A stretch of 64,000 bases of DNA from Cyanidioschyzon merolae. Taxonomy: Eukaryota. This document shows, piece by piece, positions 17,941-63,039 of this stretch. Below the pieces are notes generated by a model. The model was given only the letters and a program-made list of their open reading frames with translations. It had not been told where the DNA came from and ran no database searches. Made by a program: the position numbers and the translations under genes. Where the stretch lies: assembly GCA_000091205.1 (NCBI GenBank), contig AP006499.2; one strand, written 5' to 3'. The stretch's first letter is position 1. Each line of letters opens with the position of its first letter.

Positions 17941-18040
17941 GGTGGCGGCTGAGCACGCACCAGCACCGCCGCTCTAAGTCGAACGACGCCAACGGTGCAC
18001 AGTAGTGGCGATAAACCCTCCCTAGACAAAACGTCTCCAA

Positions 18041-18081
18041 CTGACGTGTAGACGCCTCCCCGTGTTTTTTGACCGGCCACC
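18041..18081 (-). other. Conserved 3'-terminal non-coding motif of Fanzor family copy 1 (candidate right end / omega-RNA-associated)
   Basis: Element-strand sequence gggtGGCCGGTCAAAAAACACGGGGAGGCGTCTACACGTCAG, 35 nt after the stop of the RDFNAAINI fragment. It is alignable with 47709..47748, 58478..58516 and 62110..62148. Confidence 0.45.
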
Positions 18082-18103
18082 CACTACTGTTTCCAATTTC
18101 TTC

Positions 18104-19310
18104 TCATATAGTTAACCTTTTGGGAGGTTGTCTCACAAAATTCTCTCTTGTCATCTCTGGAAGTCTTTTTTCCATCACCACACATTTCCTGATATTAATT
18201 GCGGCGTTAAAGTCTCGGTTCACAAACTCCATCCGTTTCTTGCCATCATTGATTGTACTTACTAATGCAAGTCGCCCATGAACGTTCGCCCTCCTTTCCA
18301 TTTGCTATCCCGTCAGCGGTCCGTATTTTTCATATCCTCAGGGCTCCGCTGGCACTTTTCCATCTCGAATCTCTGAAGTGTGCATCCCAGCTCATGGTGT
18401 ATATACAATGCTCGGAACTCATCGATCGGTAGCGGAACGAAACGCCTTGCGCACTCCTTGTACGTTCTCGCCGGTGGAGCTGGTGTAGTCCCTTTTTGGG
18501 TCTTCCAGCGTCCTGCTCCGTATGCCACTACGAGCCTCTGACGTTCATCCTCCTTCAAGCCACTCAACTGATTGAAAAAGTTGGCAAACGCCCGCTGCTT
18601 CCCACAATACAGATTCATTCGCAGACGAGCCCACCGAGGCTTTGTATACCCTTTCCACAGCGCATCCCAATGAGCAACGCGACCTTCCATGAATTTTCGA
18701 AAAGCTTCAAAGTCCGCTCCTCGACTCGTCACCTTGCTCAAAGCCTCCAGGTGCTCTTTCACTTATGCGTTCCACGTCTCGATTTTATTCCTTGCATTCA
18801 TGATTCTGGAGTCTCGATAGTATCTTGCTCTCGAGAACTTTAAAATACTCATGCCTTTCTGAAGTAAGTTGCCGTGGATACCATCTTCCGCACGCTTGGG
18901 TACTGCGATGGTTATGATACTTGTGCCCCAGGGTCCGCGCCAACGACAAAGTCGTTATCCTGCACTTTCTGCGTCGCAGAATCCGCCTCCTTCTCATCTT
19001 CATGCTTCGTTACGGGCGAGGCCGAGCATGGAACAAGACGATCCGCCTTCAAGCGCCGACGGTGTACACACATGGATACCCCATCGGTTTCGATCACCCC
19101 AGTGAATACCTTTTGTTCGCTGACTTTCAAACGTTTGATTTCGAAGATATTCTTCTGGTACTTCTCCCGGTTTACACCGGTGAACTCCTTCCTGCTAACC
19201 TTGAACTCCGGACAGATCTCCCTCATGATGCCATGAAGGACTGCGGAATCGATGGTCACGAAATGTGCCCTGATGTTGCACAACGGAACCACGTTGAAGC
19301 GCTTCTCCAT
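18104..19310 (-). pseudogene. Fanzor/TnpB-like nuclease ORF remnants (RuvC-I, RuvC-II region, Zn-ribbon/RuvC-III) split over three frames by stops and frameshifts
   Basis: ORF 18912..19310 ends ...[19 protein letters not shown] 18313..18762 ends ...PIDEFRALYIHHELGCTLQRFEMEKCQRSPEDMKNTDR*. ORF 18104..18301 contains FVNRDFNAAINI. The gaps between segments are under 20 nt and contain in-frame stops, so they are not introns. Confidence 0.65.
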
Positions 19311-22300
19311 TAGGAACGCTTCCGTCTCTCAGACGCTTCATTGTTCCCGCGATTCAGCTCCATCTCCGCCTTGGGTTCGAGCTCTCGGTCTAGGTGCACG
19401 AAATAGCGCATAATTAGGGGATATCATCATTTTTTCACCTTTTTTCATATCTGATACCTTTTCTGCTGGGTTGACCGGCCTCAAGGGTGCACGGTGCTCA
19501 TGAATAGTCGCACGGATTATAGAATCCTCATTCGTGCACCTGCGTGATGTCTTCTTGTCGACGAACTCGATCTCCTGTTCAAGCTGGCGATCGTCCGTCA
19601 TCCCATTGGTGATGGCCCATCTTTCCTTCGCGAGAGAGACCCGGTTGGAGTGCAAACACGGCGCATATCATGAAGCCCTGGAGGTTCATGGTTAAACGGT
19701 CTCCAAGTTCGTTAGGTACCGCATGGCCCCGTGGGTGTAAATATTCCAGTCCCTCTGCATCGAGTACCGTAGAAGCTGTAGAAGGGATGCTTTTCGTGGA
19801 GGGCATGCACCCGCTCATTTCCCCTCGAGGTTTCCCCTGTGGCGAGCACCAGGTGGCGGAGAAGGGTCCTGCTGAAAAATTCTTCCGGAACCTCGGCTGT
19901 TTCGATGTCGGCCACGTCTTCATTCATCTCCTTCACCAAATGCATTAGCCCTGACGAAGCCTTTATAACACTCATGGAGTAAGACGCAACACGGTTTCTG
20001 GGAGTCTCTTGCAACGCTTCCTTGGACGGATGCTTGATATGTATAAGATGGCAGGCTTTGACAACCATCACGTCGTTGTGCCGTCTTTCTTGCAGCCTTT
20101 GACGTCGGGCCTCCTTCATTCGCTTCTTTGTCTCGTCCTGTTCCTCTTCGCACTGGACTGTGTGTTCGTTTGTATCCGCCAGCTGGCGACACTGGGCCTC
20201 CAGGAGCCTCCACTTTCACTCGCATAACTTTCCTTTTTAGTTTTTTTTCTGAGAAAGAACGCACTTTGAATGCTTCAGGTATAAACAGCGAAAAATCACT
20301 TGAATACACTTACTTGAGGGTTGGAATACGATTGAACTGAAAAGCATACTTTGCTACGACTTCAATGCAAATACACCGCGTGCAGCAGAACAACACGCTC
20401 TTGATACCGATCGCGTTTCCGTTCAAGAGCAGCATGCGCGAAGTGTCTCGTGTAACTGGCTGATGTCTCTGGTGCACGTGTCCAGCCCCCTACAGAAAAA
20501 AAAACAGAGACTCACGACTAACTGGCAACGATATGACAATTTCTTTCCCCCCTCTAAGGTAAACGTTAAAAGGCGAAAAGGTTTCCATATTGTCGAAAGT
20601 TTATTTTATAGGCGAAACGTCCCGCGAGCCGGACGTGTCTGCCAGACCAGTGCTTCATGCGACCCCAGTGGAAGGTGCTTGCTGGAAACCCGAGCAACTC
20701 GTGCGAAATGCAGTTTATTATGGGACTAGGAGCGGGTATGCTGCGTCAGGGCGTCGGCCTGGTCGCAGTTATCTCCTTACATATCGCTTGGCGCTGCCGC
20801 AGGCACTAGGTCTGTCTGCAGAGCTTGCAGGCTCCCAGAAAGATTATGTACTCTGGCGCTGTATCGGGAAAAGCGCTCCTCGATTGGACGCCCTCTGTGG
20901 TACGGTAACGCGGTTTTGTCTCCGCGATCCATCTGTTCCAGCGGTTTAGGCGCCACTACGGGTGCTCATGGTAGGTACTCGCGCTCGCTAGAACGTAAAA
21001 ACCGACCAGTATGTCCGCGATGAAGCATAGGTAATGTAACTTGGGAGTAGGGAGTTTGATGGATACTTCAATGCGCACTGAAAAAAATAGGAAAAGAAAA
21101 AGCGCATAATCGGCGAACGCTGGCCAATGTCAACGTTTTGTCAATTAAAAAAATCTGCGAATACCTGACCACAACGAAATGGCACCGATGCGACGGGCGC
21201 GCTCAGTTTCCACCCCGAAAAGACGGGAATGACAAGCGCTGCACAAACCGCAACGACCGCTTGTGCGTGATACGTATGAGCAAGAGCCTGGAGCAGTGAG
21301 ATAGGGACCTGGACGCTGCCATCAACATTCTTCGACTGCTGCGAATGAAGCTGGAGTCAAAACGAGAGACCAACGAATTAAAAACCGGAGGTATGAGGGA
21401 GCGAAAGGAGGCTATTGCAGAAAAGGTCCACAAATCCAAAGTATCAATGACTACAGGAAGAGACCAAAACTCTAGCGTGCGCACCCGAGTGAGTAACGCG
21501 GAACCTTCCATGGTAGTCTGCCGTGGGTACCGGGGAGCCCCGTGTCCATCGCGAGACACTCTCGCAGAGCGTCCGCCTTGTTTTCGGAGGAAGCAGGCGG
21601 AAAAGCGGCAACGCCATGCAAGCCTCGTTATGGCGGTCACGTCGCGGGAACATACACACAGCAATGACCCAGCAGTCACGTGCCGTCCGCGGAACCTTCC
21701 GCCAAGGCAGCCACGTTCGAGTGTGGCCATCACGAACGAGCGCTGCAACTCGGGCACGATGACGGCATCCAGTGGGCACAACGGCCATTCACACCCAGTC
21801 TGCGTTTCGCGTTACTTCTGAGGCCTGGAATGGAGTCGAGCTCAGTTCCCCGGAGGCCAATGGAAATCGACTATTCGGCGGATTTCCGGTCCCGCGAGTA
21901 TTGGTCCTACACCACAAGAAAATCGCCATGAGCGCTCCGACGCTCAACCGTATCCCCCTCGTGGGCTCTGTCGGAGCCCTGAGGCACACAACCGGACACC
22001 CGAGTTCTGACCCAGCCACCGGGCAGCTTGGACGGCAAACGCTCAGCGAGCTTAACGCATCGCATCGCTCTGACGACCACATGCACATCAAGCTGGATGC
22101 AACCGAAAACGAAATGCGTGAAACGCCTACTCATGGCGTTCAGGGGATCCCAACGACCACGACGCGGAAGCGACGAAGCGCTCCGCAATCCGGTCGCGTT
22201 TCCGACACATCTGCAGTAAACTTAGGAATCATCGTCGTTTACGCGTATTGCGAACCCGATATGTCAGTATAATTCCGTCCTTCTGATGCCGCTGCGATCA

Positions 22301-26671: not shown

Positions 26672-28031
26672 CCATACCAGAAGTATACAGAATGGAGACT
26701 CTGACCGTACTCGGTCGCCAAAACGCTAGCATTCCGCTCTCCTTCTATCTATTTTCATCAACATCAGCCTGTGCGGGCTTTGAGTGCGACTGATTCCTGT
26801 CCCTCTCGCTGATCACTGGGCTTACAAATGCCGATGTCTGCATTCGCGTCAGCCGCGCTGCAGCAGTCGAGATACGGTGATGCCAGCGTTCGAGTCCGGC
26901 GTTCGCTGTTTCTGGTTCATCCGCAAGCACTGCATCCACAAGCGGTCGTTACGATCCGTGCGTTGCTGGCCATTTGGAGCCCACGTCTCTGGAGCTTCGG
27001 TGCGGCTGCCGCAGCGATGACGCCTGACTGCGTTCAGGTGCTTCCATGGGTCTGACGCCACACACGTGCTCCTTCGAGCACCGCCTCGTGGCACGTGAAC
27101 GCGCGCGTCATCGCTCCTTGCATGCCACTGACCGCTGCAAAAGGCTGCCTTGGATGCCGTACCCAAAGAGCACGGACTTGTTCTGGGCGATCGCCTTGGC
27201 GAGCACGCTATCGACTGCGTATGCAAGCGACCGCTGCCCCGTTCGACAGAGGATTTGCGGTAAGCGACGTCGTTCGGGATCAGGTATGTACCGGGGGCGG
27301 AATCCAGACTGGAGCGCACGCCCAGCAATGTCGATCGGTCTGCGCTCCCTTCTTCGTGCACAGCGGTGACACGCGCTCTGCTGGAAGCGATCGCTACGAT
27401 GCCTGACGTCCGACTCCAGGGCCCTTTGTAATGCAAACAAGGGAGACGAGCACTTGTGGGCGTATTTTCGCATGAGAGGTATGTTGCTGACGATGTTGCA
27501 TGGTGTGTTGTCGATGCCCACAGAGGGAGAGGGCAGGATTTGTCACTGGAGTGAAATCGATGATTTGACGGAACGCGTTCAGAGAGGGTTCGGTATGCGC
27601 TTGAGACGAAGCCTCACAGGCTCGCCGTCGACTTCTCCTTCACTCGCGGAGGCGGTGACCCGAATCGCCCCGCCCGCGAGTCGCCTCGCAACGGACGGAT
27701 CGGGAGCTTGGAGAACGCGGGATCGCAGGATGCTGTTCGTAAGGGAAGCGGAAGAGCAGAGGCTCGCACGCGTACAGCGGGTAACGAAAGCGGATACTGG
27801 ACAAACCATTCTGGATTGCGTCGCGAATGGTCTTGCTTCTAGTCACGTAACGAATTCCTGCTATGAAAGCGGTAGGAACTACTCCGAGGGTTATCACCGA
27901 AAATCCTAAAAGTGCATGCAAATCCCTGAGCCCCAATCGCTGCACGTGGAATGTCGATGCTATGCTTCTGAATAAAAAACTCGGTGAAAATCACGAGGCA
28001 GGAACAGAGCAAACAATTCAGTGTTCCATTT
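26672..28031 (+). repeat. 1.3-kb dispersed repeat family R, copy A (about 98-99% identical to copies at 40822..42194 and 49271..50658)
   Basis: The ORF-track peptides are identical or differ by 1-2 residues across the three copies (e.g. 26745..26939 = 40900..41094 = 50379..50573; the 195-aa ORF differs only at TYLIP/THLIP and LHTQS/LHSQS). Copy A diverges from B and C a few bases earlier at both ends. Confidence 0.85.
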
Positions 28032-28382
28032 TCACCTGGCGCAAAACTCGCGGTCGCTTTCAGACACTATCTCCGGCAAGCAACGAACAAGGCGAGTGTT
28101 TTCTATGGATCGTGCTGGCAAGTGACAGCGGTCTACACGATACCGTACGCTGAGGTATGCGTTCAGTCTCATTGAACACATCTCCTGGGACTCTCCGAAA
28201 GCATGTACAATGCCCAGGGCCAAGTCGACTTGTAAAAGATCTCTGCGGGCCAATATCCATCCCTAGAAACACGGCTCTCGTCGTGGTGCTTTTCCAGAGA
28301 GCCCCCCGCTTATCCCGAATGTCATTTCCCTCATCCCGAAAGCTGCGCGAACACATGGCGGAGCTTCCCAACGGGACCTTAT

Positions 28383-29285: not shown

Positions 29286-29721
29286 CGGTTCATATGAATC
29301 GTGTGGCTCAAGCCAGTAGCGGTACCAGACGAATCGCCGCTCTTTACGGGATCAGAGCACACCAACAAAGCCAGCCTTGCCGGGTATCGAAGCGCTTGGC
29401 GTCCGTAACGACGTCGCCAGTAACCCTTAATAACGCTACAGCATCCACTGGGTATCCTTGGCGCAATACCTACGAGTATTCTGCCTCTAACTGCTAAAGC
29501 AAGTGCTATATTCCAGGTGGCCAGGTTGCTTCTCGAGTTGCGGCAGCTGGGCGTCGAGCGTTCGGCCGCGACGTCCTTCGGGGCCGCCCCCCGCGCAGCA
29601 GCGCCGCTCTCCCGGTGGGCATGTCGTCACTGCGAGAGCCTTTGAACAGGTTGTTTTTCGTGGCTCTTCACTTTGATCCTTGACGAAAGGCGTCAGAAGA
29701 TCGCTCTACGGCAGCGGTACT

Positions 29722-38800: not shown

Positions 38801-39538
38801 GCGAATGTCGCAATCGATGCAGACCCGCGTCACATAGGGGACGTCGTATTCGCGGAGTTCCACGATGTTTTCGTACGGATCTGTTCGACGAATCCGCTGT
38901 GCCGCGCTCGAGAGGGAAGCGGATGCGTCTGTACTGAGATCCCCAGGTATGAGGCTGGGGTTTTGCTTACCATTCGCATAGGACAGCAAATGACTGCGGA
39001 TTCTTACCAAATCATCGGTTGTAAACGTTTCCACACGAAGGAACAAACGTCGGGCTCGCGTCGCCAAATGATTGAGCATATCCAGGTCCTCGAGTTCGGC
39101 CCGATGAATCCCACTGAGCACATCGCTGAAATCCCGTTTCAGCGCCGACTCTACATCAGTCTCCTTTCCTGGTGTACATCCCACATAGAAATAAGGCCTA
39201 TAACACAGCGTCACACGAAAGTCGCCACCACCTTCATCCCCGGAAAGGAAGTAACAATCCAATGCGCTCACTTGGCGGCCACTCGCTGGGTCATGTACGG
39301 CTGCAACGGCCACATTTAGCAACCATCCGATCCTTTCTGGTGCTCGAAAACCGTCCAGAACCGGGGGCAATGGGAAAAATCCAGCCATCCGATCCCGAGC
39401 ATCCAGCGCAGCTCGCGAGTCTCTTTCTACCTGCGTGTCGTGCGCAGGCAACGTCCGCACGTCCACTTCAGCGTCTTCATCTTCAGCCCCAGAGGAAAGT
39501 TGTTCCTCATCAGGGTCAAGATACCCGTCCAGTGCCAT
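32867..39538 (-). CDS. POLE: DNA polymerase epsilon catalytic subunit (Pol2/POLE) as one uninterrupted ~2220-codon ORF
   Basis: Pol-epsilon-specific blocks: RMAGFFPLPPV...RIGWLLN (N-terminus), exonuclease motifs, LHLDVGAMYPNIILTNRLQP, CAACDFN...WVWRGE, ELDTDGIWC, and C-terminal Cys clusters (CRICACPLS..., CDRCG..CECSGSC). The ORF track start at 39601 is GTG; the first ATG is at 39538. Confidence 0.9.
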   Translation of the reverse strand: MALDGYLDPDEEQLSSGAEDEDAEVDVRTLPAHDTQVERDSRAALDARDRMAGFFPLPPVLDGFRAPERIGWLLNVAVAAVHDPASGRQVSALDCYFLSGDEGGGDFRVTLCYRPYFYVGCTPGKETDVESALKRDFSDVLSGIHRAELEDLDMLNHLATRARRLFLRVETFTTDDLVRIRSHLLSYANGKQNPSLIPGDLSTDASASLSSAAQRIRRTDPYENIVELREYDVPYVTRVCIDCDIRCGYWYRVEHSLSSGGAAPKLHLLSELVERANPTVLAYDIECTKAPLKFPDPYADDEIMMISWMLDGRGYLGVNRQIIAEDIHGFTYAPKPEFESSFVVFNEPDEASLLRRFFAEARAAQPRVYVTYNGDAFDWFFVHVRASRLGINILDKIGMSFSAARGLCRGRAAVHMDCIHWVNRDSYLPQGSRGLKAVTRALLGYEPHELDPEEMLTAARTRPQELAAYSVSDAVATYQLYMKYVQPFIFSLCNILPFGPDDVLRKGSGTLCESLLMCEAHRRNIVAPNKFKNNATERTFQSRLLANETYIGGHVEALQSGIYRADLPIPFRIDTAAVRELQENLDQFLQFAIEREQDLHLEEITDYENVRADLAERLKRLAEQPLLQERPLILHLDVGAMYPNIILTNRLQPHACVTRETCAACDFNGTSDCRRKMHWVWRGECYPATIGEVQSIRASVLTTVRARRRQGEKVSDDDAEAMYRKRLREYCMKVHKRVLEPTVQTREAWICQRENPFYVDTVRAFRDRRYEYKRLLKQWRKALAESGGASIEARNMCIVYDSMQLAHKCILNSFYGYVMRRAARWYSMEMAGVVTQTGASIIRLAREWIERVGLPLELDTDGIWCAIPATFPNDITLHTRSGREISISLLCTVLNTKVAAQYTNHQYQEWSPDEGTYKQRSEFSIFFEIDGPYRAMVLPASREEGKSIKKRYAVFQRDGSLAEIKGFELKRRGELKLIKVLQSEIFGRFLEGSTLAECYAAVGETANLWLDVLDSNGGLLSDAELLELVAEQTHMSKPLAAYIQAGQKSSAITCAKRIQEFLGKDMVRDKGLACRYVIARYPLGTQVTERAIPVQIFSADLEQRQALLRKWLREPVYNFREILDWDYYRGRLANTVQRIISIPAACQGVPNPVPRIEHPDWLRRRLRDLACAQKQTTLKSFFRADQKATPDLEDIVVVKTGPLPRRQPCSDARGIANTSLLNAAVAAGAAGAAGATSSVDLARTVLETVSTSLKWTAAGTSVGFAHSAQEQVTERDASGSRLAPFRAGVQQVVQPGRCRPHSDAAARGEPPSLRPISYQQWLEAVAKPQWRLWVRQRRARRSAAAHPAGLRCRLSGLVLEHADLVEPLLVLGIRETGTFQTCRVWFQTSRGRVLSLPVHVPHELWLLYRRLPPDALGQPIETSRNRAWCSDELAVHTLTVRDASVSEAQLTTMARDALCLHAGYLVGLYGVQVSPLLLAVASLGIVCVLKPDAAKQTLRALQLQGIALTDLDSVEKRKPADFASPSWIIVCGSHAKDRSGRGIWVIFSPDRIILILVGSFRSDAETRSTLMRLRHESSVHGDGSLQTLGNALNQTEIIHAQDWKRGLRLLGLTLANRFPGGARPPLLFLQTAVPVALMRRRVPALNNYPLAVVPHVAADCSYQPTGWEAPAMQRTLQRVTALCAQLPLRFQLSDLYGVPIGNLSGDLVAETLDVAVARALLQRGWPLDWLHRGDSLALDVDTTSDAETWPQVSVPGAYSGICIDLEIQDLPLVAILEADTLYAMDRSQAPSGSLLVQVLRPLVQTWVGLEANGDQSAALLTSHLHRWIVRGLAGRTSRMLCAELLHLIRKTFHHLMETLAEMNASVIHATPFRLMLCTHRRQLSEAKAYCRFLLESCRTRPVLRRLIFAPVLRYIRAAFWHDSDHYWAWTMETTPVQTEAEAPTTTTTTTTTTTTTEAGAIPNGTANGNVALSYRLEYSWRDAEHWSAPARKQFAALAQGLLQHLALAGQEGQGRAPHVTAAGTVGARAAPAALTPLAADQIFFLVKQWSLDREPQAAAQDAHWLFRLLLLYRPWQEALLGVEHAVFRFLKCSPFAYKAKSLDASHRVIVLDPIVCSRCFAVNVAQLASSQTTEALSTRSCRICACPLSEAQLRYRVAGRLSALLQTYLVQDGLCDRCGTAQGRLLSDQCECSGSCTTSRWETCTTSRALQSLFAFWNPTPCT
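33669..33712. repeat. (TGT)n(CGT)n tract translated as a 13-residue poly-Thr insertion in PolE
   Basis: tgttgttgttgttgttgttgttgtcgtcgtcgtcgtcgtc on the plus strand; it encodes ...APTTTTTTTTTTTTTEAG on the minus strand. Confidence 0.85.
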
Positions 39539-40821
39539 AGGTAAGCACAGTCCCTGGCGCTCTCTAGTCGTTCGCAACGACGGGGCGCGGGAAACGCACA
39601 CGTCTCACAAGGCCTCGAGCGCAGTGCGCTCTCGAAGTTTCCCAAGCGATGTAGTGCAGCTTCCTCCTCAGAAGCTTCGAAGCGCGCACGGCATCAAAAC
39701 ACACGCGCCACTGGCCCCCGGAAGAGCTGCAACGATTGTCCAGCCGCCTCCGTCCAGCTCTCCCAAAGTCGCCTCACGTTCCGAAGCTGCCAGGCTTGGC
39801 AAAGATACGAGAGGCACCTTTGCGACGAGAGTTCCGCGTTACCCTGTCTCGTCACAAGATGAATCAGTTGTTCCCTACTTGCACTCACGCCTCACACACG
39901 GCCTCGAAAGAACACCAATAAGCACCGCAACTAGAGCGCTTCCTATGCACGCATACTCTTCGTGGAGCGCGGAAGCGTGTCTCCGGTGCACGCATACGTT
40001 CCCGCGACGACACGCATCGCCCCGCCGCAGAGACACGTATGCATTCCAGGTAGAAGGTGTCAGACAAAGCGCGCCGCCGTCCACTGTGCGCGAATTTTTC
40101 GCGCGCTTTTTCGCTGTCGCCTCCAGACACGATTTTGAGTTTGGCACAGGGATCGGGCGATTGCGTGCCCGGGGTGTTGCGACGCGCGAGTTCTCAGTGG
40201 ATAGTGCGATATCCCGCATGGTCATGATGGCCGGCACACCGGCACCGGTGTAGCTCGGTTCGATCAAACAACTGATCTTTCGATAAATAAGACGACAAGC
40301 GAATCAACAGTAGGGTCATTCGTGCTGCTGTCTAGCGTAAGCGAAATACCCCGGGGAATGCCTTATTAGAGAGCGCTGGTGCAAGCGCACCGGACGGTCC
40401 ATGAATGCGAGCATCGCGAAAAAGAGATCTCGTTGCTGAGACCGCGAGCACAACCACACGCGTGCTGCTTACATACGTTCTCTGGGATTCTTCCGAGCGA
40501 CCTGCCTCTTCTGTGCAGAGCCATTTGATACTGTCCGCAGCATTACTGAAGGCGCTAATACCATGCTTCAGAAGCACAGCTTCCCGCCGAGATGCAGAGC
40601 GTTCATCCTGGAATGGTCGCCGGCTTCCCGGTGTAACGTTACTGGGTCGATAATTCAGAAAACAAACATATCCAGCGTGACGCCGGCGACAGCAGCACAG
40701 GAGGCGAGGAGAACATGTTGCAATCCGCACGGGAAACGCTCGTCTGTTGCTGTGTCTCTTTTTGGCACATTTCTTTGGGAATTCACCAACTGCATGACGA
40801 GAAAGGCGACGACTTTCTCGA

Positions 40822-42194
40822 TACACCCATGCCAAAATAAAATGGAATGGGTCCAGTTAGCTAACTCGGTCACCAAAACGCTAGCATTCCGCTCTCCTTC
40901 TATCTATTTTCATCAACATCAGCCTGTGCGGGCTTTGAGTGCGACTGATTCCTGTCCCTCTCGCTGATCACTGGGCTTACAAATGCCGATGTCTGCATTC
41001 GCGTCAGCCGCGCTGCAGCAGTCGAGATACGGTGATGCCAGCGTTCGAGTCCGGCGTTCGCTGTTTCTGGTTCATCCGCAAGCACTGCATCCACAAGCGG
41101 TCGTTACGATCCGTGCGTTGCTGGCCATTTGGAGCCCACGTCTCTGGAGCTTCGGTGCGGCTGCCGCAGCGATGACGCCTGACTGCGTTCAGGTGCTTCC
41201 ATGGGTCTGACGCCACACACGTGCTTCTTCGAGCACCGCCTCGTGGCACGTGAACGCGCGCGTCATCGCTCCTTGCATGCCACTGACCGCTGCAAAAGGC
41301 TGCCTTGGATGCCGTACCCAAAGAGCACGGACTTGTTCTGGGCGATCGCCTTGGCGAGCACGCTATCGACTGCGAATGCAAGCGACCGCTGCCCCGTTCG
41401 ACAGAGGATTTGCGGTAAGCGACGTCGTTCGGGATCAGGTGTGTACCGGGGGCGGAATCCAGACTGGAGCGCACGCCCAGCAATGTCGATCGGTCTGCGC
41501 TCCCTTCTTCGTGCACAGCGGTGACACGCGCTCTGCTGGAAGCGATCGCTACGATGCCTGACGTCCGACTCCAGGGCCCTTTGTAATGCAAACAAGGGAG
41601 ACGAGCACTTGTGGGCGTATTTTCGCATGAGAGGTATGTTGCTGACGATGTTGCATGGTGTGTTGTCGATGCCCACAGAGGGAGAGGGCAGGATTTGTCT
41701 CTGGAGTGAAATCGATGATTTGACGTAACGCGTTCAGAGAGGGTTCGGTATGCGCTTGAGACGAAGCCTCACAGGCTCGCCGTCGACTTCTCCTTCACTC
41801 GCGGAGGCGGCGGCCCGAATCGCCCCGCCCGCGAGTCGCCTCGCAACGGACGGATCGGGAGCTTGGAGAACGCGCGATCGCAGGATGCTGTTCGTACGGG
41901 AAGCGGAAGAGCAGAGGCTCGCACGCGTACAGCGGGTAACGAAAGCGGATACTGGACAAACCATTCTGGATTGCGTCGCGAATGGTCTTGCTTCTAGTCA
42001 CGTAACGAATTCCTGCTATGAAAGTGGTAGGAACTACTCCGAGGGTTATCACCGAAAATCCTAAAAGTGCATGCAAATCCCTGAGCCCCAATCGCTGCAC
42101 GTGGAATGTCGATGCTATGCTTCTGAATAAAAAACTCGGTGAAAATCACGAGGCAGGAACAGAGCAAACAATTCAGTGTTCCATTTTATAATCT
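40822..42194 (+). repeat. 1.3-kb dispersed repeat family R, copy B
   Basis: Near-identical to 26672..28031 (same orientation) and to the reverse complement of 49271..50658. It shares extended ends with copy C (aata.aatggaatgggtccagttagctaac at the 5' end, ccattttataatctaa at the 3' end). Confidence 0.85.
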
Positions 42195-42326
42195 AAAAGA
42201 GGTTAAGGAAAGTAGCACCAATTGACAGGCAGTCATCGCAGCTGGGATGCTGCACCAGCCGCTACGAAGAGCGCAGCGAGCATGTCTTTGTCCTGCATTG
42301 ACGACAAGTTCTGTTAGAGTCCGGGA

Positions 42327-47340: not shown

Positions 47341-47689
47341 TGCTACTTTCCCCGGATCCGGCGATCTTGGCAGAGATGCAGCGCGCTTTCAGCGTCGATA
47401 TGGACCACGACGTGCGAGCCTTGTACATCACATGGCAGGATCGAGGCACCCGACAAAAGCAGATACTGCATTTTGGTCTACGCTATTGGTGTACTGGCGA
47501 GAGCGTACCCGGAAGGTCGTGGCGCAATCGCCAAACCGTGAAGTGATTCTTACTCCCGCCAGTCATATGCGCCCGGATATTCGTTGGCTACCTGCTGATT
47601 TTTCACATCAAGTAGGAATACTTTGGAACGTACGGATTTTCTCTCTTTCCGTTTATACGTCCAGTGAGGCGGAACAGGTTCACAGCGAT

Positions 47690-48180
47690 GGAAGGTAAAA
47701 ATATCTGTCCAATCGCAGACGCCTCCCAACGTCGTTTGACCGGTCGCCTGGTATCGGCTTCAGATTTTCCTCACATACTGCGCGAAGAGGCTGCCCCATA
47801 AATAAAGTAAGCTCGCCTCAGATCCCCGAGTCTCCTCTTCGGCACCGCACATCGTCTCATATTTGTGGCGGCGTTGATGTCACAGTTGACAAACTCCTTG
47901 CTTTTATTGCATCCGGGCGAAATAACCAAAGCAAGTATTTCTAGAGCTCATGTCCTCTGCGCCACGACAGTCTCGTCATCGTCCCGCTGGGTAAACACCT
48001 TTTCTCAACTTTTCCCCTTCTTCTGCTTCTTCGTCACTTGCTCCTCTTCTCACGATGGTATCGGAGAAGAGAATTTTATTGGTTTTCGTCCAACCCGGTG
48101 ATGATGGCCCTCCGAGATCCTCGAATTATACGCCCATACCATCGCATTTTATTTTTTATTTTGGAACATGAACACCCTTC
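47690..48180 (-). mobile_element. Internally deleted Fanzor-family derivative, copy 4 (5' region + RuvC-III relic + conserved 3' motif)
   Basis: Minus strand reads ...KEFVNCDINAATNMRRCAVPKRRLGD (RDxNAAxNI-type relic, ~47800..47990). The 3' motif ggcGACCGGTCAAACGACGTTGGGAGGCGTCTGCGATTGG is at 47709..47748. The 5' portion 48000..48180 is homologous to 20100..20230 and 62400..62545. Confidence 0.6.
47709..47748 (-). other. Conserved 3'-terminal non-coding motif, Fanzor family copy 4
   Basis: See the alignment in the findings; it carries the same GCCGGTC...GGGAGGCGTCT core. Confidence 0.4.
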
Positions 48181-49270: not shown

Positions 49271-50658
49271 CCCCTATTAGATTATAAAGTGGAACACTGA
49301 ATTGTTTGCTCTGTTCCTGCCTCGTGATTTTCACCGAGTTTTTTATTCAGAAGCATAGCATCGACATTCCACGTGCAGCGATTGGGGCTCAGGGATTTGC
49401 ATGCACTTTTAGGATTTTCGGTGATAACCCTCGGAGTAGTTCCTACCGCTTTCATAGCAGGAATTCGTTACGTGACTAGAAGCAAGACCATTCGCGACGC
49501 AATCCAGAATGGTTTGTCCAGTATCCGCTTTCGTTACCCGCTGTACGCGTGCGAGCCTCTGCTCTTCTGCTTCCCTTACGAACAGCATCCTGCAATCGCG
49601 CGTTCTCCAAGCTCCCGATCCGTCCGTTGCGAGGCGACTCGCGGGCGGGGCGATTCGGGCCGCCGCCTCCGCGAGTGAAGGAGAAGTCGACGGCGAGCCT
49701 GTGAGGCTTCGTCTCAAGCGCATACCGAACCCTCTCTGAACGCGTTACGTCAAATCATCGATTTCACTCCAGAGACAAATCCTGCCCTCTCCCTCTGTGG
49801 GCATCGACAACACACCATGCAACATCGTCAGCAACATACCTCTCATGCGAAAATACGCCCACAAGTGCTCGTCTCCCTTGTTTGCATTACAAAGGGCCCT
49901 GGAGTCGGACGTCAGGCATCGTAGCGATCGCTTCCAGCAGAGCGCGTGTCACCGCTGTGCACGAAGAAGGGAGCGCAGACCGATCGACATTGCTGGGCGT
50001 GCGCTCCAGTCTGGATTCCGCCCCCGGTACATACCTGATCCCGAACGACGTCGCTTACCGCAAATCCTCTGTCGAACGGGGCAGCGGTCGCTTGCATTCG
50101 CAGTCGATAGCGTGCTCGCCAAGGCGATCGCCCAGAACAAGTCCGTGCTCTTTGGGTACGGCATCCAAGGCAGCCTTTTGCAGCGGTCAGTGGCATGCAA
50201 GGAGCGATGACGCGCGCGTTCACGTGCCACGAGGCGGTGCTCGAAGGAGCACGTGTGTGGCGTCAGACCCATGGAAGCACCTGAACGCAGTCAGGCGTCA
50301 TCGCTGCGGCAGCCGCACCGAAGCTCCAGAGACGTGGGCTCCAAATGGCCAGCAACGCACGGATCGTAACGACCGCTTGTGGATGCAGTGCTTGCGGATG
50401 AACCAGAAACAGCGAACGCCGGACTCGAACGCTGGCATCACCGTATCTCGACTGCTGCAGCGCGGCTGACGCGAATGCAGACATCGGCATTTGTAAGCCC
50501 AGTGATCAGCGAGAGGGACAGGAATCAGTCGCACTCAAAGCCCGCACAGGCTGATGTTGATGAAAATAGATAGAAGGAGAGCGGAATGCTAGCGTTTTTG
50601 CGACCGAGTTAGCTAACTGGACCCATTCCATTCTATTCTGGAATGAATATAAGACGCG
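49271..50658 (-). repeat. 1.3-kb dispersed repeat family R, copy C (inverted relative to A and B)
   Basis: The ORF-track peptides are the same as in A and B but on opposite strands (e.g. 49882..50469 + matches 41004..41591 -; 50379..50573 + matches 40900..41094 -). Confidence 0.85.
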
Positions 50659-56269: not shown

Positions 56270-56740
56270 ACAGCATCGAGTATCGAACTGCAGCAATATG
56301 GGCGTACGAATTCATACGTGGTTTAAGATTCGTGGTTGTCTTTATCGGAATGGCTTTTACGAATCTATGCTGCGGAAATTTGTTTTGTTTATTTGTTTCA
56401 TTGACAAAACGTTTACATGGGCCAGCGTTCTCCAATTGTGCGCTCTTTCTGCTCCCACATTTTTTTGTGTTTTTTCCAGTACACGGTGAAGTATCCATCA
56501 AACGCCCTACCTCCAAGTTACATGTCCCATACTTCTTCTCGGATATTCAGGTCGTTTCATACGTCCTATCGTGTGTGCCTGGTGCCTGCCGAAAGCGACC
56601 GCAATGGAGTCTTTAGCGCCGATGCGTTCGCTGCACGGAGACAGAATGGCGTTGCCGTACCACACAGAGGGCATCGGCTCGAGATTCGTTCTGGTAAGGG
56701 AATCGGGAAGATTCGCGACGCACTCGAAAAAGCGTTTGAA
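56270..56740 (+). repeat. Dispersed repeat family X, copy 2
   Basis: See the feature at 1290..1740. Confidence 0.6.
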
Positions 56741-57799: not shown

Positions 57800-58570
57800 G
57801 GCACTGCGGTCGTGACGGCATATCTCGGACCACACTAGCTTATGCCGTGACATCGAGCCCGAAGAGAAGAGCGGGAACTCCATCGCCGCATTCTGAAGCA
57901 ACGCGATTGCCTCAAGCTCAAGCGCATGCACAGCTTGTGCGGCGTAGACCTTGGAGTCCTTCACCGCAATTGTGTTCCACCTCCGGGTACGTGTCATCAA
58001 GCGCTCTTTAGCGGTCTATATCAGACTTGCTCAGAGTGCGTTCATTTGAAGAAATAAAAAATCTAGGGGACAGGTATCGACATGAAAGTTGGAGATATTG
58101 CAGGGGATGTCGTCGCCGGCTGCCTGTAGAAAACGAAAAAAAAAATCCGCTTCTCGTCAGCTATCTAGCGAAGAAGGGCATATGCTGAAAAAGAAGAAAA
58201 AGAAACAAAGAGAACGACGAGTCAAGGGGCTTGCCCAACCGAACGACAACGAGACTGTGGTGGCATAGAGGGCACGAGTTCGGGGACTCCTTCCAATAGT
58301 GAGTTCACCCGGAGGCCCTGCACGCAGGGAGTTCGCGAAACGAGACTTCAACGCCATCATCAATGTCAAGAGATATGCGGCGCTGAGGACGACACCCGCA
58401 TAGCTGACGCGATCTGTCGTCGTGGGGCAGCTCCTCAGGCTCAAGATCTACAGGGAGATGCTGAAATCGATAGCATACGGCCGGTCGGAAAAAACTGGGA
58501 GGCGCCTGTGACTGGGTGTAAACATATACAATCTACGGTAGAAAAAGGTTTTTTCGCTCCATGGACTGTA
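57800..58570 (+). mobile_element. Internally deleted Fanzor-family derivative, copy 2
   Basis: The plus strand reads *RARVRGLLPIVSSPGGPARREFAKRDFNAIINVKRYAALRTTPA* (58260..58402). The 3' motif acgGCCGGTCGGAAAAAACTGGGAGGCGCCTGTGACTGGG is at 58478..58516. The 5'-end homology (57900..58075, ..caagcgctctttagcggtctatatcagacttgctcagagtgcgttcatttgaagaaataaaaaatctagg) aligns with the reverse complement of 20225..20340. Confidence 0.55.
58478..58516 (+). other. Conserved 3'-terminal non-coding motif, Fanzor family copy 2
   Basis: See the alignment in the findings. Confidence 0.4.
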
Positions 58571-60258
58571 ACACGGACAAGTGATTCTAGATTGCGTGGT
58601 TGTTATCGGGGCCTGAGAAAACGTCCACCATTACGCAACATCCTTCAAGTTGCTCCAGACATCATCTATGCTTTCCTTCGGAGATGCTGGATCGTTCTGG
58701 CGATCCTCTGGAAACCGAGTCCACTGTGAGTGCCAACAATGGCATCTTATGCACCAGTACAGACGCCAAACGGAGACAGAGCGGCTTTAATGTGCTTTTG
58801 TGAGCGTCGGTTCGAGGGCTGCTCGCGCGAGAGGTCCCCGTCACAAGCAAGCGCAAACGCACGTCACCGTGGATATAGTGCAACCGGGGAATCTGGTTCA
58901 CATTATCGACGTTTCACACCATGGGGAACCAGGGTTTCATCTCGCGTAGATGCCCTTCCAGGTGCCGTTGAGCCACGCCGTCGCCTCGTGCGGCGAATGC
59001 GTCGTCACTGTACGGATCCAATCCCCAGCGCTGATGGGAGGTGCTGTTTACGGTTCTTCGAATGTGCTTATATTCGGACAGAAGCAGTGATCCCTCGACT
59101 GATCTCCACTGGCAATAGCGAATGCTGGGAATTCATGTCCAATGTTTCAAGCGTATACCATAAAACATTTTATCCGGCATATGATGCCGTTCTAGCAGCA
59201 GTGAGAAAGCCGCTCTATGTTTCTCGAATTACTGCTCATCAAACGCGTAACGCGGCCGGCAACTCCCGTGTTCCATCGCACGAACTGATGCACCATGACG
59301 GTCTCGTGCAGCGTCCTCGCTCGTGACTGTGTCGCCTTTCATGTCCGACGACTTCTGCGCCAGGTACTCAAGTTCGCAGCAATGTGGACGATAGATGCAG
59401 AGGGCCGAATTCGCAAATCCAATCGACTTCGAGCGAGCAGATGCCGCGCATCCTGAATACCCCTGTTGTTCCGTTCTACTATCGCGCACAGATAATAACC
59501 GCCGACGATGAGCTGGTTTCCGATGAACGAAGCTTGGCGAATGCAGGCTCGGGCGGTGTCTTCTTCAGATACGCAACCCATATCCGAACGCTAGCTGTGC
59601 CGATCCCCGCGCAGAGTGCGTCTCTGTGCCCGTGAGCCTCTGTGAGGGCAAAAGTTTACGCGCTAGCGCTCGGAAGCTAACGCTCAGCCTTGCTTCTTCG
59701 TGTCTCCGAGCTCGATCTCGCCTCAATACATAGCATGCAGCGCTATAACTCTGTGGGCTTCTTCGCTTCGCCTGGAACGTCCTCGGCGTCTGCGAGGCCA
59801 CTGTTGAGGAACGCGGTCCAGAAAGCCTCTGCTGTCCCTGGTGCGGCGTCATCCGACGTTCGTTCAGCGAGTTCCATGATGCCGTCGGGATTCACATAGT
59901 CCTCGCCACTGAGCCACCAGAGGTTCGCGTGTTCGTCGGCCCCGCTCTGCGCACGACCAAACAGCGTTCGAGCGCTCTGTTTGTGTTTCGTTAGAAGGCG
60001 TCGTATGGCGGGCGGAGCGCTCGCAAAGTCTTCATCATCTGACGACAACTCTGCGCGCAAAAGCACCCTTGACTGTGAGCACGTTGACACTAGTACTGGA
60101 CGAGACCTTTGGCAACCCAGCGGTACGGACTGTGGCACGAACATGTTATCGATGCAGTACGTCCCAACAAAGAACAGTGTCATCGCCAGCTCTCGCGCGC
60201 CGTTCGAGCACGCGTGTTTACAGTTCTCGAACGTGCTTCGAGGACGGTTTTGGAAGAA

Positions 60259-60948: not shown

Positions 60949-62054
60949 GGACTCAGGGAATTCGTACTATTGAGACCGCCTGCTCTGAAACTCGAGCGAA
61001 GTTGCACCAGCAATGGATTTGGGTTTCAAATCTGATCCTCCGATTTGTGATGGCGAAGCTCCCATATCTGTATCATACATATGGTACCGTGATCGGAAGG
61101 CTCTGGCTCTGGGACAGGAGCTACCCAGCAACAAAGTGTCGAACGCGAAGAGCCCAGCCTTCTGGCGCGGCACCGACACCCGTCACAATTTTCTGCGTGC
61201 GCGGCACTGCATTTCGCGTTGATTTACGTCACTGCACAGTACTGGACGAGGGGCCATGCCATCAGCGAAACGTCCACGGGAGACGACAGCTCAAATTGCG
61301 CGTCTTCTATGTATACGATTCTGGAACGCGGCTGGGTCGAATCACGACAGCGTACGGATTCTTTGTCTGTGGACACTTTTCGACGAGTGCTTTCGAGTGG
61401 CTGGAGAATTCGAACCCTAGTCGTGGAGATTCGTCGTTCTGGTATAGCCGTCCGAATGAGCTAGAGCGGTGCCTCTGACAGAGAAAGATGTGTGATTGCA
61501 TTCGAGCGGACGAGCTGCGGAGGTCTCCATGCCGGAGACCTAGCGCCAAACTGAGCACACAGCACAGACCTGCGGGCGCTCACATAGAGGAGAAGATTAC
61601 GCGCCGATTGCGCTCGATTTGCGAAACGGCGCCTGCAGATAAATGGTGGCATTCAGGGCTCGCGCTGTAACCACGGAGAATGCTCCGCCCAAACAGTTGC
61701 TACAGAGACACGAATACCCGTATCACGGGAGCAGATAGGGACTTGCGGTGTAGCTGTTGTATGAAAAGATCGTTTAGATTCATTTACTGTGCAGGAAGGC
61801 AGAACCAGAATCCCATCATGTAATCTAAAGAATACGATCGCCCTGGGGTTTCTGAGGTCTTTGGAGATTTTGCGTAGGCTCGCGCATGTTCTCCAGAAGA
61901 ACGATTGAACCGCAAATCTACGAACTGATAGCTTTACCTCGGAAATAAACGCCTATTCGCTACAAACACTACAGATCACAGTATGTATCGGACGCAAGAA
62001 CAGAGTGCTGGGAAACCATACGACGCGAGGTGGAGGACACAATCTCGACGAATT

Positions 62055-62765
62055 ACATGCATCCCCAGGGCGAAGAACAACTTTTTACATCTATGGAGCG
62101 TATGGAAACCCATACGCAGACGCCGCGCAGCATTTTTGACCGGCCTCCTGCCACCGATATCAGTTTTTACCCCAGCACACTTTGAGCTTGAGAGTCTGGG
62201 CCACGAAGTTGAATCGCGTCGGATCCTTGGGTCTCGTCTTCTGCACCGCACACTGTCTGATATTAACAGCGACTTTAAGTCTCAGTTCATAAACTTAATG
62301 CGCGTATTGCCCCTGGCTGAACTCACCAGTGGACGGACTGCTAGAACTCGCGCCTTCTGTGCCACTACGGTCTCTTCAGTGTTCCGTCGGGCACACACTT
62401 TTTCCCGCCTATTTCCACTCTTCCTCTACGTCACATGCTCGGCTTCGCTCGATGCTAGGTGACAAGACAATTTTGTCTGTTTTTTCTTGAACCCGGCGAC
62501 ATCGGTACTCCAGGATCGTCGACTTGCTTTTCCATAACTTTCCTTTTCTAATTTTTGTCTGAAAAAGAACGCTTTTTGAACGCTTCTTTTATAGACTGCA
62601 AAAAACCAATCGAATACACTTGTTTGAGGTTTGGAACTCAAATGAATTGAAAGACTGTACTTTGCTTCGACCCCAACGCAAATACAACTTTTTCCGGTAG
62701 AACAACACGCTAATTGATCGGGATCATGTTTCCCTCCAACGGCGACATGCGCGTCGTGTCTCATG
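62055..62765 (-). mobile_element. Internally deleted Fanzor-family derivative, copy 3 (both ends retained, ~0.7 kb)
   Basis: The minus strand reads ...EETVVAQKARVLAVRPLVSSARGNTRIKFMN*DLK(frameshift)VAVNIRQCAVQK, collinear with copy 1's RLALVSTINDGKKRMEFVNRDFNAAINIRKCVV. The 3' motif aggagGCCGGTCAAAAATGCTGCGCGGCGTCTGCGTATGGG is at 62110..62148. The 5' end 62465..62765 aligns with 20150..20465 (cataactttcctttt...tctgaaaaagaacgc...atacactt..ttgagg.ttggaa...actttgct.cgac...gcaaataca...agaacaacacgct). Confidence 0.6.
62110..62148 (-). other. Conserved 3'-terminal non-coding motif, Fanzor family copy 3
   Basis: See the alignment in the findings. Confidence 0.4.
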
Positions 62766-63039
62766 TCTGCCCGATCTCCCAGGTGCGCTCACCGCCGCGA
62801 CGCATGCACCGCGCGAGACGGTACTCCGATCGATGAAGGACACGTGTCCGATGCCGCACTGGCACATGCGTGTTCTCACCAGCGCACTGCAGCTGCAATC
62901 CAGTGTCCTAAATCGGAAACTCACGTAGAATTATCTCCTGCTATAGGCCATGTCGCTGGTGCCCATCGCAGTACCGACCTGACATACAAGGAGATGTTGG
63001 GGCCTCCCACAAAAGCCCTGCAACGATTCCAGCAAACGC

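Follow-up and report, generated by a model that had tools for sequence, protein, structure and literature searches.

What is the short block of sequence that recurs near the 3′ end of each of the four Fanzor-family copies in the window, the whole 64-kb stretch of DNA analyzed here? A first-pass annotation described it as a conserved non-coding motif and a candidate for the transposon right end or an omega-RNA scaffold. The block (GCCGGTC, an A-rich spacer, then GG(G)AGGCG(T/C)CT) is present as reported, at 18041-18091 (-), 58468-58520 (+), 62105-62150 (-), and 47700-47750 (-). The four sites are homologous copies, so chance resemblance does not come into question: against a profile of related 3′ ends, nhmmer gave E values of 2e-75 for copy 1, 1.4e-15 for copy 2, 1.6e-14 for copy 3, and 2.7e-15 for copy 4. 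A fixed-spacer DNA pattern for the motif matched copy 3 only, because the spacer length differs between copies. The motif is not non-coding: it consists of the final twelve or so codons of a Fanzor nuclease gene that has decayed. We consider it highly probable that the locus combines such a Fanzor1 coding tail, within a multi-copy element, with a real 3′ end that lies past the stop codon and would provide the right end and the likeliest omega-RNA scaffold.

The setting is eukaryotic and nuclear. Pol epsilon, eIF2D, and Lon are among the nuclear genes of the window. The host is a hot-spring red alga of the Cyanidiophyceae, with Cyanidiococcus yangmingshanensis as the closest host that has a name, and its nuclear genome carries the element in multiple copies; the 64-kb window alone has four, and metagenome contigs yielded 313 related stretches. 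None of the window’s four copies is intact: copy 1 is a full-length but frameshifted pseudogene, and the other three are pseudogenes shortened by internal deletion. Copy 1 (17958..20478, minus strand) retains a 5′ leader, a broken ORF, and a 3′ tail; its 3′ limit comes from the nhmmer profile, and its 5′ limit of ~20478 is approximate, set by comparison with copy 3 and loci outside the window. Three-frame translation scatters its ORF across frames, with stops inside. Copy 2 (57952..58575, plus strand; limits by nhmmer against copy 3) is short, internally deleted, and decayed, and can be aligned with copies 3 and 4 across its whole length, with the same architecture. Copy 3 (62049..62790, minus strand) has its tail running to ~62049, and its 5′ ~330 nt are homologous to the 5′ ends of full-length elements. 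Copy 4 (47669..48176, minus strand) is likewise short and internally deleted, with a tail to ~47669.

The copies had been called Fanzor-family relics, and a predicted structure indicates that this assignment is right. The AlphaFold2 model was made of the homolog P0004, which is 71% identical to copy 1, rather than of a broken window copy (pLDDT 85.7, pTM 0.80). Its best Foldseek match in the PDB was SpuFz (9cey; E 3.5e-13, TM 0.64), and the top seven PDB matches were all SpuFz, PpFz, or GtFz (E 3.5e-13 to 7.7e-9; PpFz and GtFz, 1e-12 to 8e-9), with Cas12 and TnpB ranking lower. Searching PDB sequences with a profile returned no match, so membership is shown by fold instead. Pfam assigned no significant family to the reconstructed copy-1 protein or its homologs, with PF07282 alone appearing below threshold (E 0.15 for P0004, 0.0023 for P0133), and the best 120 protein matches carried no informative annotation.

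The sequence motifs point the same way. Fanzor1 proteins are marked by a RuvC-I DPG, a C-terminally shifted RuvC-II glutamate, and a RuvC-III RDxxxxxN (Yoon et al.). Copy 1 carries GADPG, (V/I)DEFRT, and NRDFNAAINI, the last encoded by the RuvC-III codons N-R-D-F-N-A-A-I-N-I at 18191..18220 (-) as read from the translation. In an alignment of 85 homologs, DPG, DEFRT, and RDxNAAxNI are conserved; D122, E294, and D363 are invariant or nearly so, as is the RD..N of RuvC-III. The shifted position of the RuvC-II glutamate was judged from the motif and not by structural superposition. The family thus resembles the Fanzor1 references (SpuFz1 of Spizellomyces punctatus, PDB 8GKH and 9CEY; GtFz1 of Guillardia theta) in its fold, in its DPG, shifted-glutamate (DEFRT), and RDxNAAxNI motifs, and in being a eukaryotic nuclear, multi-copy element. 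It differs from them in several respects. The zinc-finger/TNB region between RuvC-II and RuvC-III appears reduced to a degenerate H/C set (…THHELGC…EKCQRS…), and the PF07282 matches are sub-threshold. Variable acidic tandem repeats lie upstream of RuvC-I, and a clade-specific basic tail, GGRSKKTGRRLHVSWRRFV, ends the protein. The 30-nt terminal inverted repeat of the references is missing: searches on the four window copies and two outside loci gave short chance-level matches, none of them involving the motif or the 3′ terminus. Finally, an intact full-length ORF was found in none of 80 related loci, which may mean that the system no longer works in the genomes sampled. The elements make up a Fanzor1 family in cyanidiophycean red algae, in which the motif is an ordinary coding relic; our literature search found no specific work on Fanzor in these algae.

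The motif had been called non-coding, yet it shares the reading frame of the nuclease relic, and the ORFs of intact homologs continue straight across it. Its translation is GGRSK(K/N)TGRRL(H) or, more loosely, G(G/D)RSxxxGRRL. In copy 2 and related loci the frame is that of RDxNAAxNI; in copies 1 and 4 it is the same frame after single frameshifts. The motif core of copy 1 (18046..18081, minus strand), identified by frame reading, intact homologs, and codon-position identities, has the codons GGT GGC CGG TCA AAA AAC ACG GGG AGG CGT CTA CAC and encodes GGRSKNTGRRLH. In copy 2, frame 0 translates as ...KRDFNAIINV...SIAYGRSEKTGRRL followed by a stop, with RDFNAIINV at 58341-58367 (+) and the motif codons Y-G-R-S-E-K-T-G-R-R-L plus the stop at 58476..58511 (+), the TGA itself (58509-58511, plus strand) coming directly after the motif. 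Copy 4 encodes GDRSNDVGRRL at 47716-47748 (-). The intact homologs end in ...VVGGRSKKTGRRLHVSWRRFV before their stop; P0004, P0005, P0006, and P0008 terminate in ...GGRSK.TGRRLHVSWRRFV, and most of 44 related loci keep a reading frame through the motif to a stop at a fixed position. Two outside loci with the B-type 3′ end that copies 2-4 have (L070 and L075) read HDINAAINI...VVGGRSRKTGMSL in frame, with the stop right behind the motif. Differences among the four window copies are of the synonymous type (TCA/TCG, CGT/CGC, CTA/CTG).

Across 51 non-redundant copies, identity at codon positions 1, 2, and 3 is 0.81, 0.82, and 0.74 in the motif against 0.82, 0.85, and 0.74 in the 45 codons upstream, and third positions are as free in the motif as elsewhere. 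The first-pass annotation had placed the block 35-75 nt from the RDxNAAxNI relic; the spacing is in fact ~105-115 nt in all four copies, and the intervening sequence aligns too. The motif is the end of one continuous homologous coding stretch of ~170 nt (profile positions 1-170 of 178), and alignability between the two lineages of the family ends where coding ends. It looks conserved among the four copies because it is the last part of this C-terminal stretch, which can be aligned between two diverged lineages. Since the motif is conserved no more than its neighboring codons, its apparent conservation while the coding parts decayed does not point to a right end or an RNA scaffold. What it encodes is the basic C-terminal tail (…VVGGRSKKTGRRL[HVSWRRFV], then the stop) of a Fanzor1-type, TnpB-like RuvC nuclease. 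The peptide is probably disordered, as far as structure prediction indicates. It is specific to the clade, being absent from relatives at less than 50% identity, and its role may lie in contacts with nucleic acid or in nuclear import.

The motif is also not the 3′ terminus that it had been taken for, as the element runs on for 88 nt beyond it in copy 1 and ~65 nt in copy 2. Variable guide sequence had been expected immediately past the motif; the next tens of nucleotides are instead conserved in the full-length lineage (identity 0.70-0.84), homology reaches ~88 nt beyond the motif, and the variable flank begins only at an offset of ~260 from the RDF codon. The part of the 3′ end that is truly non-coding begins past the stop codon, at 18021..17958 in copy 1 and 58512..~58575 in copy 2. 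The ancestral ORF of copy 1 stops at TAG 18022..18024 (-), a position common to most of 44 related tails, and its candidate right end or omega-RNA scaffold is the post-stop tail at 17958..18021 (-). This tail holds a small hairpin relic, a conserved ACTACTGTGCACC block, and then a long terminal hairpin, CACCGTTGGCGTCGTTC-GACTTA-GAGCGGCGGTGCTGGTG, at 17958..17997 (-), which adjoins the element boundary. The full-length lineage has tails of this kind (A-type): ~64-70 nt with a small hairpin, a conserved ACTACTGTACACC block, and an imperfect hairpin of 17-25 bp. A conserved non-coding 3′ segment thus does exist at the end of each copy, lying in copy 2 at 58512-58570 within the interval first annotated; it was the motif that did not belong to it.

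The boundary of the A-type tail is sharp. The outer arm of its terminal hairpin (...TGGTG) coincides with the end of inter-copy homology, and across 51 copies identity falls within 10 nt from ~0.62 in the tail to ~0.30 right after ...TGGTG. The terminal region has a mean folding z of -2.10, and single hairpins of at least 12 bp occur in 36 of the 51 copies. Compared with coding, motif, and flank windows, the difference in z has a Wilcoxon p of ~5e-9, a value inflated by the relatedness of the copies. A covariance model (R1) of the 19-bp terminal hairpin found a sole match in the window, at 17954-18008 (-) (51 bits, E 3.5e-8), and gave one match per element, always at the 3′ end. Two sequence types of the terminal hairpin, …CGTCGTTCGA-CTT-TCGAACGGCG… and …AACGTTTTTC-TTTT-GAAAGACGTT…, both fold into long hairpins, and insertions in one arm have their match in the other. 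The terminal hairpin showed no significant covariation: in the covariance-model alignment 72.8% of cells were paired, compared with 71.9% for shuffles, and the covariation score was reached by 55 of the 500 shuffles, in a sample of young or decaying copies with few informative substitutions whose two types pair in different registers that an alignment cannot score. Hairpin 1 showed no covariation. A plain MAFFT alignment of 50 tails, which puts the hairpin arms out of register, yielded -1.7 kcal/mol in RNAalifold without any covariation, and the tail had no Rfam match.

Copies 2-4 end differently (B-type), with the stop directly behind the motif and then a different tail of ~65 nt. The sharing beyond the motif that had been seen between copies 2 and 3 was borne out; it extends for ~50-65 nt and is found also in copy 4 and in two outside loci, L070 and L054. 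This common tail contains a small hairpin, GAAAAA-GG-TTTTTC in copy 2, where alignments place the tail at 58512..58575 (+; end approximate). B-type tails fold no better than shuffles (z -0.7 for copy 2, -0.5 for copy 4), in a sample of few and decayed copies. A-type and B-type tails part exactly where the motif ends, which is also where the solo tail of locus L030 starts; together these two observations suggest a functional tail module that begins behind the motif.

The post-stop tail, with its terminal hairpin and sharp boundary, occupies the position expected of an omega RNA, as seen in identity, folding z, and covariance-model matches. Its position would make it the right end of the transposon and the best candidate for an omega-RNA scaffold, and the first ~15-20 nt of the flank would be the guide. 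The layout resembles that of SpuFz1, with its 75-nt scaffold, and the short derivatives resemble the Fanzor1 ‘ghost’ loci, which are ORF-less or ORF-deleted but keep their ends. A stem-loop flanking the guide is conserved in Fanzor and TnpB guide RNAs (bioRxiv 10.1101/2023.08.09.552727). A fuller proposal can be made tentatively: the ~65-90-nt tail is the omega-RNA scaffold of an uncharacterised Fanzor1 clade of the thermoacidophilic Cyanidiophyceae that lacks terminal inverted repeats, the C-terminal peptide is an RNA-binding or nuclear-import adaptation, and copies 2-4 are ‘ghost’-like carriers of guide RNA.

The tail and its hairpin might instead act only on DNA, as an end recognized by a transposase or recombinase, or in the mRNA, as a termination or 3′-processing signal, with no role as a guide scaffold. 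We regard this as possible, if rather doubtful. The hairpin sits exactly at the boundary, terminal inverted repeats are absent, and a hairpin at a transposon end could equally well be a DNA-level recognition site; the lack of significant covariation in the hairpin is in keeping with this. A hairpin-like GCGCTCnGTGAGCGC near the 5′ limit of many copies also fits such a role. Fanzor1 genes are, moreover, known passengers of Helitrons and other transposons (PMC10530073). On the other side, the element showed no transposase gene, its 3′ terminus reads ...TGGTG where a Helitron would have CTRR, and every experimentally studied Fanzor makes RNA from exactly this stop-to-right-end interval. The two roles are also not exclusive, as right end and scaffold overlap in TnpB and Fanzor systems.

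Two known transposon types bear comparison. Helitron 3′ ends have a hairpin 10-12 nt upstream of a CTRR terminus, and autonomous Helitrons encode a Rep/helicase. The red-algal elements share with them a palindromic hairpin near the 3′ end, the lack of terminal inverted repeats, and no obvious target-site duplication, but their hairpin reaches the boundary itself and no Rep/helicase gene was seen in or beside the elements examined. Helitron membership was rejected on the wrong terminus and on the lack of a Rep/helicase ORF inside the element. At the ends of IS200/IS605 elements, subterminal hairpins are the site of transposase recognition. The family shares with ISDra2 and its omega RNA a RuvC nuclease ancestry (fold match 8h1j, E 4e-4), the expectation of a guide RNA from the 3′ end of the gene and the right end, and hairpin-containing ends without terminal inverted repeats. 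It differs in its eukaryotic host, in a much larger protein with Fanzor1-type REC expansions, and in lacking a TnpA (HUH) gene, and IS200/IS605 membership was not adopted for want of that gene. On their 5′ side the elements are mosaics, with at least four alternative upstream modules and one 70-nt segment that only some of the copies have.

Could the motif, although coding, double as the 5′ part of an omega-RNA scaffold or as a processing site, so that the guide RNA overlaps the last ~12-19 codons? There are precedents: the GtFz1 guide RNA overlaps the last 17 codons of its gene (PMC10432273), and the ISDra2 scaffold overlaps ~100+ nt of the ORF. All three short derivatives keep ~250 nt of 3′ coding sequence, motif included, and the whole 142-nt 3′ region of copy 1 has a folding z of -2.9 through a 9-bp helix, CAGTAGTGG/CCACTACTG, that encloses the motif. 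That helix was rejected, as it lacks covariation, equals shuffle controls, and is confounded by 3-periodic sequence; a control slid by +3 pairs even better because the sequences are 3-periodic. Two other helices, one pairing the GGCGTCT of the motif with AGACG and one pairing AGAC with GTCT across the stop, likewise showed no covariation and equaled shuffle controls. The compensatory covariation that had been proposed as a check on the motif was therefore found in no helix tested. In folding, the motif window is no more stable than expected (z -0.01, compared with 0.08 for coding sequence), and its freely varying third codon positions reveal no extra constraint at the nucleotide level, so that neither the constraint nor the conserved structure of a scaffold is apparent. 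The parting of the A-type and B-type tails exactly after the motif, where the L030 solo tail also begins, argues against an overlap as well. We found nothing here in support of a guide RNA that reaches back into the last codons, and such an overlap is unlikely.

The original reading, in which a non-coding motif is itself the right end or scaffold, drew on visual conservation among four copies only and is now hardly credible, given a motif that is in frame and read through by intact homologs, has an ordinary codon-position pattern, lacks structure and covariation, and is separated from the boundary by 65-88 nt of conserved, not variable, sequence. One prediction that could have counted against that reading did not do so: the 5′ end contains neither the motif nor the 3′ end in inverted form, and the motif is not part of a terminal inverted repeat.

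As first stated, the finding carries little weight, a decayed gene’s coding tail having been misread as non-coding. This is a general pitfall: where TnpB or Fanzor copies have decayed, sequence conserved immediately before the right end can be coding and not RNA scaffold. The corrected element map, with its sharply bounded 3′ tail and terminal hairpin, marks exactly where a guide RNA should be sought. Cyanidiophycean hosts grow at 40-56 °C and very low pH, and any active member of the family from such hosts would be a possible source of a robust, compact genome editor. If the tail is an omega-RNA scaffold and active members exist, the family would represent a heat- and acid-adapted eukaryotic RNA-guided nuclease carried by an unusual, hairpin-ended transposon.

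The block formed by GCCGGTC, an A-rich spacer and GG(G)AGGCG(T/C)CT was found at all four sites named by the first-pass annotation, each at a Fanzor-family relic: copy 1 (about 20478..17958, minus strand), copy 2 (57952..58575, plus), copy 3 (62049..62790, minus) and copy 4 (47669..48176, minus). That annotation was borne out only in part; its reading of the block as a non-coding candidate right end or omega-RNA scaffold is not supported. The motif is in frame, is read through by intact homologs, and represents coding sequence at the 3′ tail of a Fanzor1 gene. Three-frame translation gives ...VVGGRSKNTGRRLHVSWRRFV* for copy 1, ...SIAYGRSEKTGRRL* for copy 2 and ...IPGDRSNDVGRRLRL... for copy 4. 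The motif peptide and KRDFNAIINV share one frame in copy 2, and a single frameshift lies between the RDxNAAxNI-type codons and the motif peptide in copies 1 and 4. With the reconstructed copy-1 protein as query, 191 relatives were retrieved, and the intact homologs P0004, P0008, P0005 and P0006 end in ...RDFNAAINIRRCAVLETRPPEWTRENFVGQPLKVELYKKKLKLVVGGRSKQTRRRLRFSWRRFV, ...GGRSKETGRRLHVSWRLLG, ...GGRSKKARRHLHVSWRLLL and ...GARSKKTGTRLHVSWRRFV, respectively. In most of 44 related genomic tails the frame stays open from RDFNAAINI across the peptide and closes at a stop whose position is fixed. In a second lineage (metagenome loci L070 and L075) the frame reads HDINAAINI...VVGGRSRKTGMSL*, with the stop directly 3′ of the motif.

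Nor is the motif an isolated island. Against a profile of related 3′ ends, copies 2, 4 and 3 align without a break, starting at the RDxNAAxNI codons and running up to the motif end (profile positions 1-171, E = 1.4e-15; 2-170, E = 2.7e-15; and 2-178, E = 1.6e-14, respectively), and copy 1 covers the whole profile, from 18217 to 17958 (E = 2e-75). The motif lies about 105-115 nt past the RDxNAAxNI relic in all four copies, rather than the 35-75 nt first proposed. Synonymous changes are seen between the window copies (TCA/TCG, CGT/CGC, CTA/CTG). Among 51 non-redundant copies (less than 95% identical), the 12 motif codons have mean pairwise identities of 0.81, 0.82 and 0.74 at their first, second and third positions, against 0.82, 0.85 and 0.74 in the 45 codons that precede them. 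Because these values match, the motif carries an ordinary coding signature with no added nucleotide-level constraint.

Assignment to the Fanzor family was correct, and is supported by fold matches together with the catalytic motifs listed for the family by Yoon et al. (bioRxiv 10.1101/2023.08.09.552727). Pfam gave only sub-threshold matches to a Cas12f1-like TNB domain, and a sequence-profile search of the PDB gave no match. Relatives numbered 1,481 in an exhaustive profile search; many of them are 600-700 aa long and have in common the motifs DPG, ...AYGxA..., DEFRT, VRGLLWCxST and NRDLNAAxNIRRC...ERPxxLxR. An 85-sequence alignment yielded a confident AlphaFold2 model (pLDDT 85.7, pTM 0.80), whose best structural matches are solved complexes of SpuFz (9cey, 9cez, 8gkh, 9ceu), PpFz (9cf1, 9cf0) and GtFz (9cer), with E of 3.5e-13 to 7.7e-9 and TM of 0.50-0.64; Cas12 and TnpB rank behind Fanzor. 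The motif-encoded peptide, the last 20 or so residues, is predicted to be disordered (pLDDT 43-54) and is absent from relatives less than 50% identical. It is thus a clade-specific basic tail, which could conceivably contact RNA or act as a nuclear localisation signal. Elsewhere in the protein, one to about six acidic tandem repeats of about 25 aa, with the unit VTKDEE(K/N)KEADPATQEV(Q/E)DNDFVV(D/G)A, stand just before the RuvC-I DPG motif (GADPG) in homologs P0001, P0002, P0005, P0008 and P0009, their number varying, and in copy 1 at about 18930-19010. The last unit supplies the 11-residue catalytic strand.

The motif shows no folding beyond shuffle expectation. In length-matched comparisons with dinucleotide shuffles, motif windows have a mean folding z of -0.01, upstream coding windows 0.08 and flank windows -0.14. 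Copy 1's whole 142-nt 3′ region gave a z of -2.9 and pointed to a helix of CAGTAGTGG with CCACTACTG. Pairing in that helix and in two others involving or enclosing the motif (GGCGTCT with AGACG, AGAC with GTCT) was at shuffle expectation, and changes mostly break pairs.

A conserved 3′ non-coding element was rightly expected, and it lies downstream of the motif. In the full-length A-type lineage, that of copy 1, the motif is followed by eight codons, the stop and about 65-70 nt of non-coding sequence, and mean identity falls from about 0.6 to about 0.3 within ten bases just past ...TGGTG. In copy 1 the stop is at 18024..18022 and the tail at 18021..17958, all on the minus strand; the flanking gene starts at 17940. 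The B-type lineage (copies 2-4, L070, L054) parts from A-type exactly at the motif end, which is the B-type stop, and carries a different tail of about 65 nt (58512..~58575, plus strand, in copy 2, inside the interval originally marked). The further 50 nt or so reported as common to copies 2 and 3 are real, and occur also in copy 4, L070 and L054. In some outside copies (L053, L060, L027), (GCT)n/(GGT)n and (GCGT)n microsatellites start directly at the 3′ boundary.

The terminal 41 nt or so of the tail fold with a mean z of -2.10, with 45% of copies below -2 and a single hairpin of at least 12 bp in 36 of 51. Wilcoxon p-values from comparing this region with the coding, motif and flank windows overstate independence, as the copies are related. 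Two sequence types form equally long terminal hairpins, each insertion in one arm being matched in the other. A covariance model built on the terminal hairpin gives one match per full-length element, in every case at the 3′ end, and its single match in the window is at 17954-18008 (minus strand). Covariation was not significant, with 72.8% of cells paired in the model-based alignment against 71.9% in shuffles and a score reached by 55 of 500 shuffles. Hairpin 1, a small hairpin after the stop, shows no covariation, and no Rfam family matched. Structure in the tail is thus supported on thermodynamic and positional grounds rather than evolutionary ones.

Fanzor guide RNAs come from the 3′ non-coding region adjoining the right end (PMC10530073), and a guide-flanking stem-loop is conserved (bioRxiv 10.1101/2023.08.09.552727). 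By analogy with these systems, the right end and omega-RNA scaffold would most plausibly be the post-stop tail, a reading that we hold tentatively and just short of probable; the guide would then be drawn from the flank past ...TGGTG. The RNA might also overlap the motif codons, as the GtFz1 guide RNA overlaps the last 17 codons (PMC10432273), but this is unlikely and found no support here. The point where A-type and B-type diverge suggests that the tail module starts downstream of the motif, as does a solo A-type 3′ tail in L030 (1027-1121), whose first base is the first base past the motif. That junction is the same point at which the two tail types part; the solo tail adjoins an unrelated repeat that recurs in L042 and L047.

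Neither the motif nor the 3′ end has an inverted counterpart at the 5′ end; the element has no TIR, and its non-coding 3′ tail is sharply bounded and ends in a hairpin. On the 5′ side, alternative upstream modules form a mosaic. Repeat 'X' (about 20480-21160, minus strand) lies directly upstream of copy 1's 5′ limit, with an inverted partial copy at 23453-23833 and partial copies at 1391-1697 and 56391-56591. It also precedes the 5′ end in roughly half of the related metagenome loci; in the remainder, three or more other upstream modules are seen. Two explanations fit: the element may come with alternative 5′ modules, or it may insert preferentially into repeat 'X'. A short palindrome, GCGCTCnGTGAGCGC, lies near the 5′ limit of many copies (L024, L013, L006 and others, locus position about 1830-1900; copy 1, about 20440-20478). 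In L078 and L081 the segment of about 70 nt that holds it is missing, between ...AAT| and |GCCGCAGTTGAAGGG; it has the look of a left-end module that some copies have and others lack. The window also holds two tandem 64-nt units (6845-6908 and 6917-6980, 80% identity) and a repeat of about 1.37 kb in three copies 98-99% identical, two direct (26673-28032 and 40828-42202, plus strand) and one inverted (49271-50645, minus). The 1.37-kb repeat resembles a young repeat or mobile element with no relation to the Fanzor copies; the single frame tried contains many stops.

The host DNA is intron-poor eukaryotic nuclear DNA, with an intron-free 2,244-aa ORF for the DNA polymerase epsilon catalytic subunit (32867-39601, minus strand), large intron-free nuclear genes for Lon protease (29680-32457, plus), eIF2D (24650-26488, minus) and plastid ATP synthase gamma (9734-10924, plus), and genes for pantothenate kinase and gamma-glutamyltranspeptidase. 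Identity of the ATP synthase gamma subunit is 99% to JGI metagenome proteins and 88% to its counterpart in Cyanidiococcus yangmingshanensis, the nearest organism with a name; the source is therefore another cyanidiophycean alga, akin to that species but separate from it. Copy 1 is full-length, its ORF split across three frames. Copies 2-4 are derivatives of about 0.5-0.75 kb with one common architecture, in which an internal deletion leaves the 5′ leader and the initial codons fused to the last 80 or so codons and the tail, and resemble the 'ghost' loci of S. punctatus. None of 80 related metagenome loci (L005-L084) has an intact full-length ORF (longest, 629 aa), and neither do L001-L003. Even copies whose C-terminal 425 aa are intact have the N-terminal third broken into several ORFs (in L001, ORFs of 85, 89 and 114 aa, then 425 aa), a pattern that decay, introns or recoding might produce. 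The motif itself is of low interest and the downstream tail of modest interest; the element is a Fanzor1 element in cyanidiophycean red algae, an addition to the already known Fanzor1 kind.
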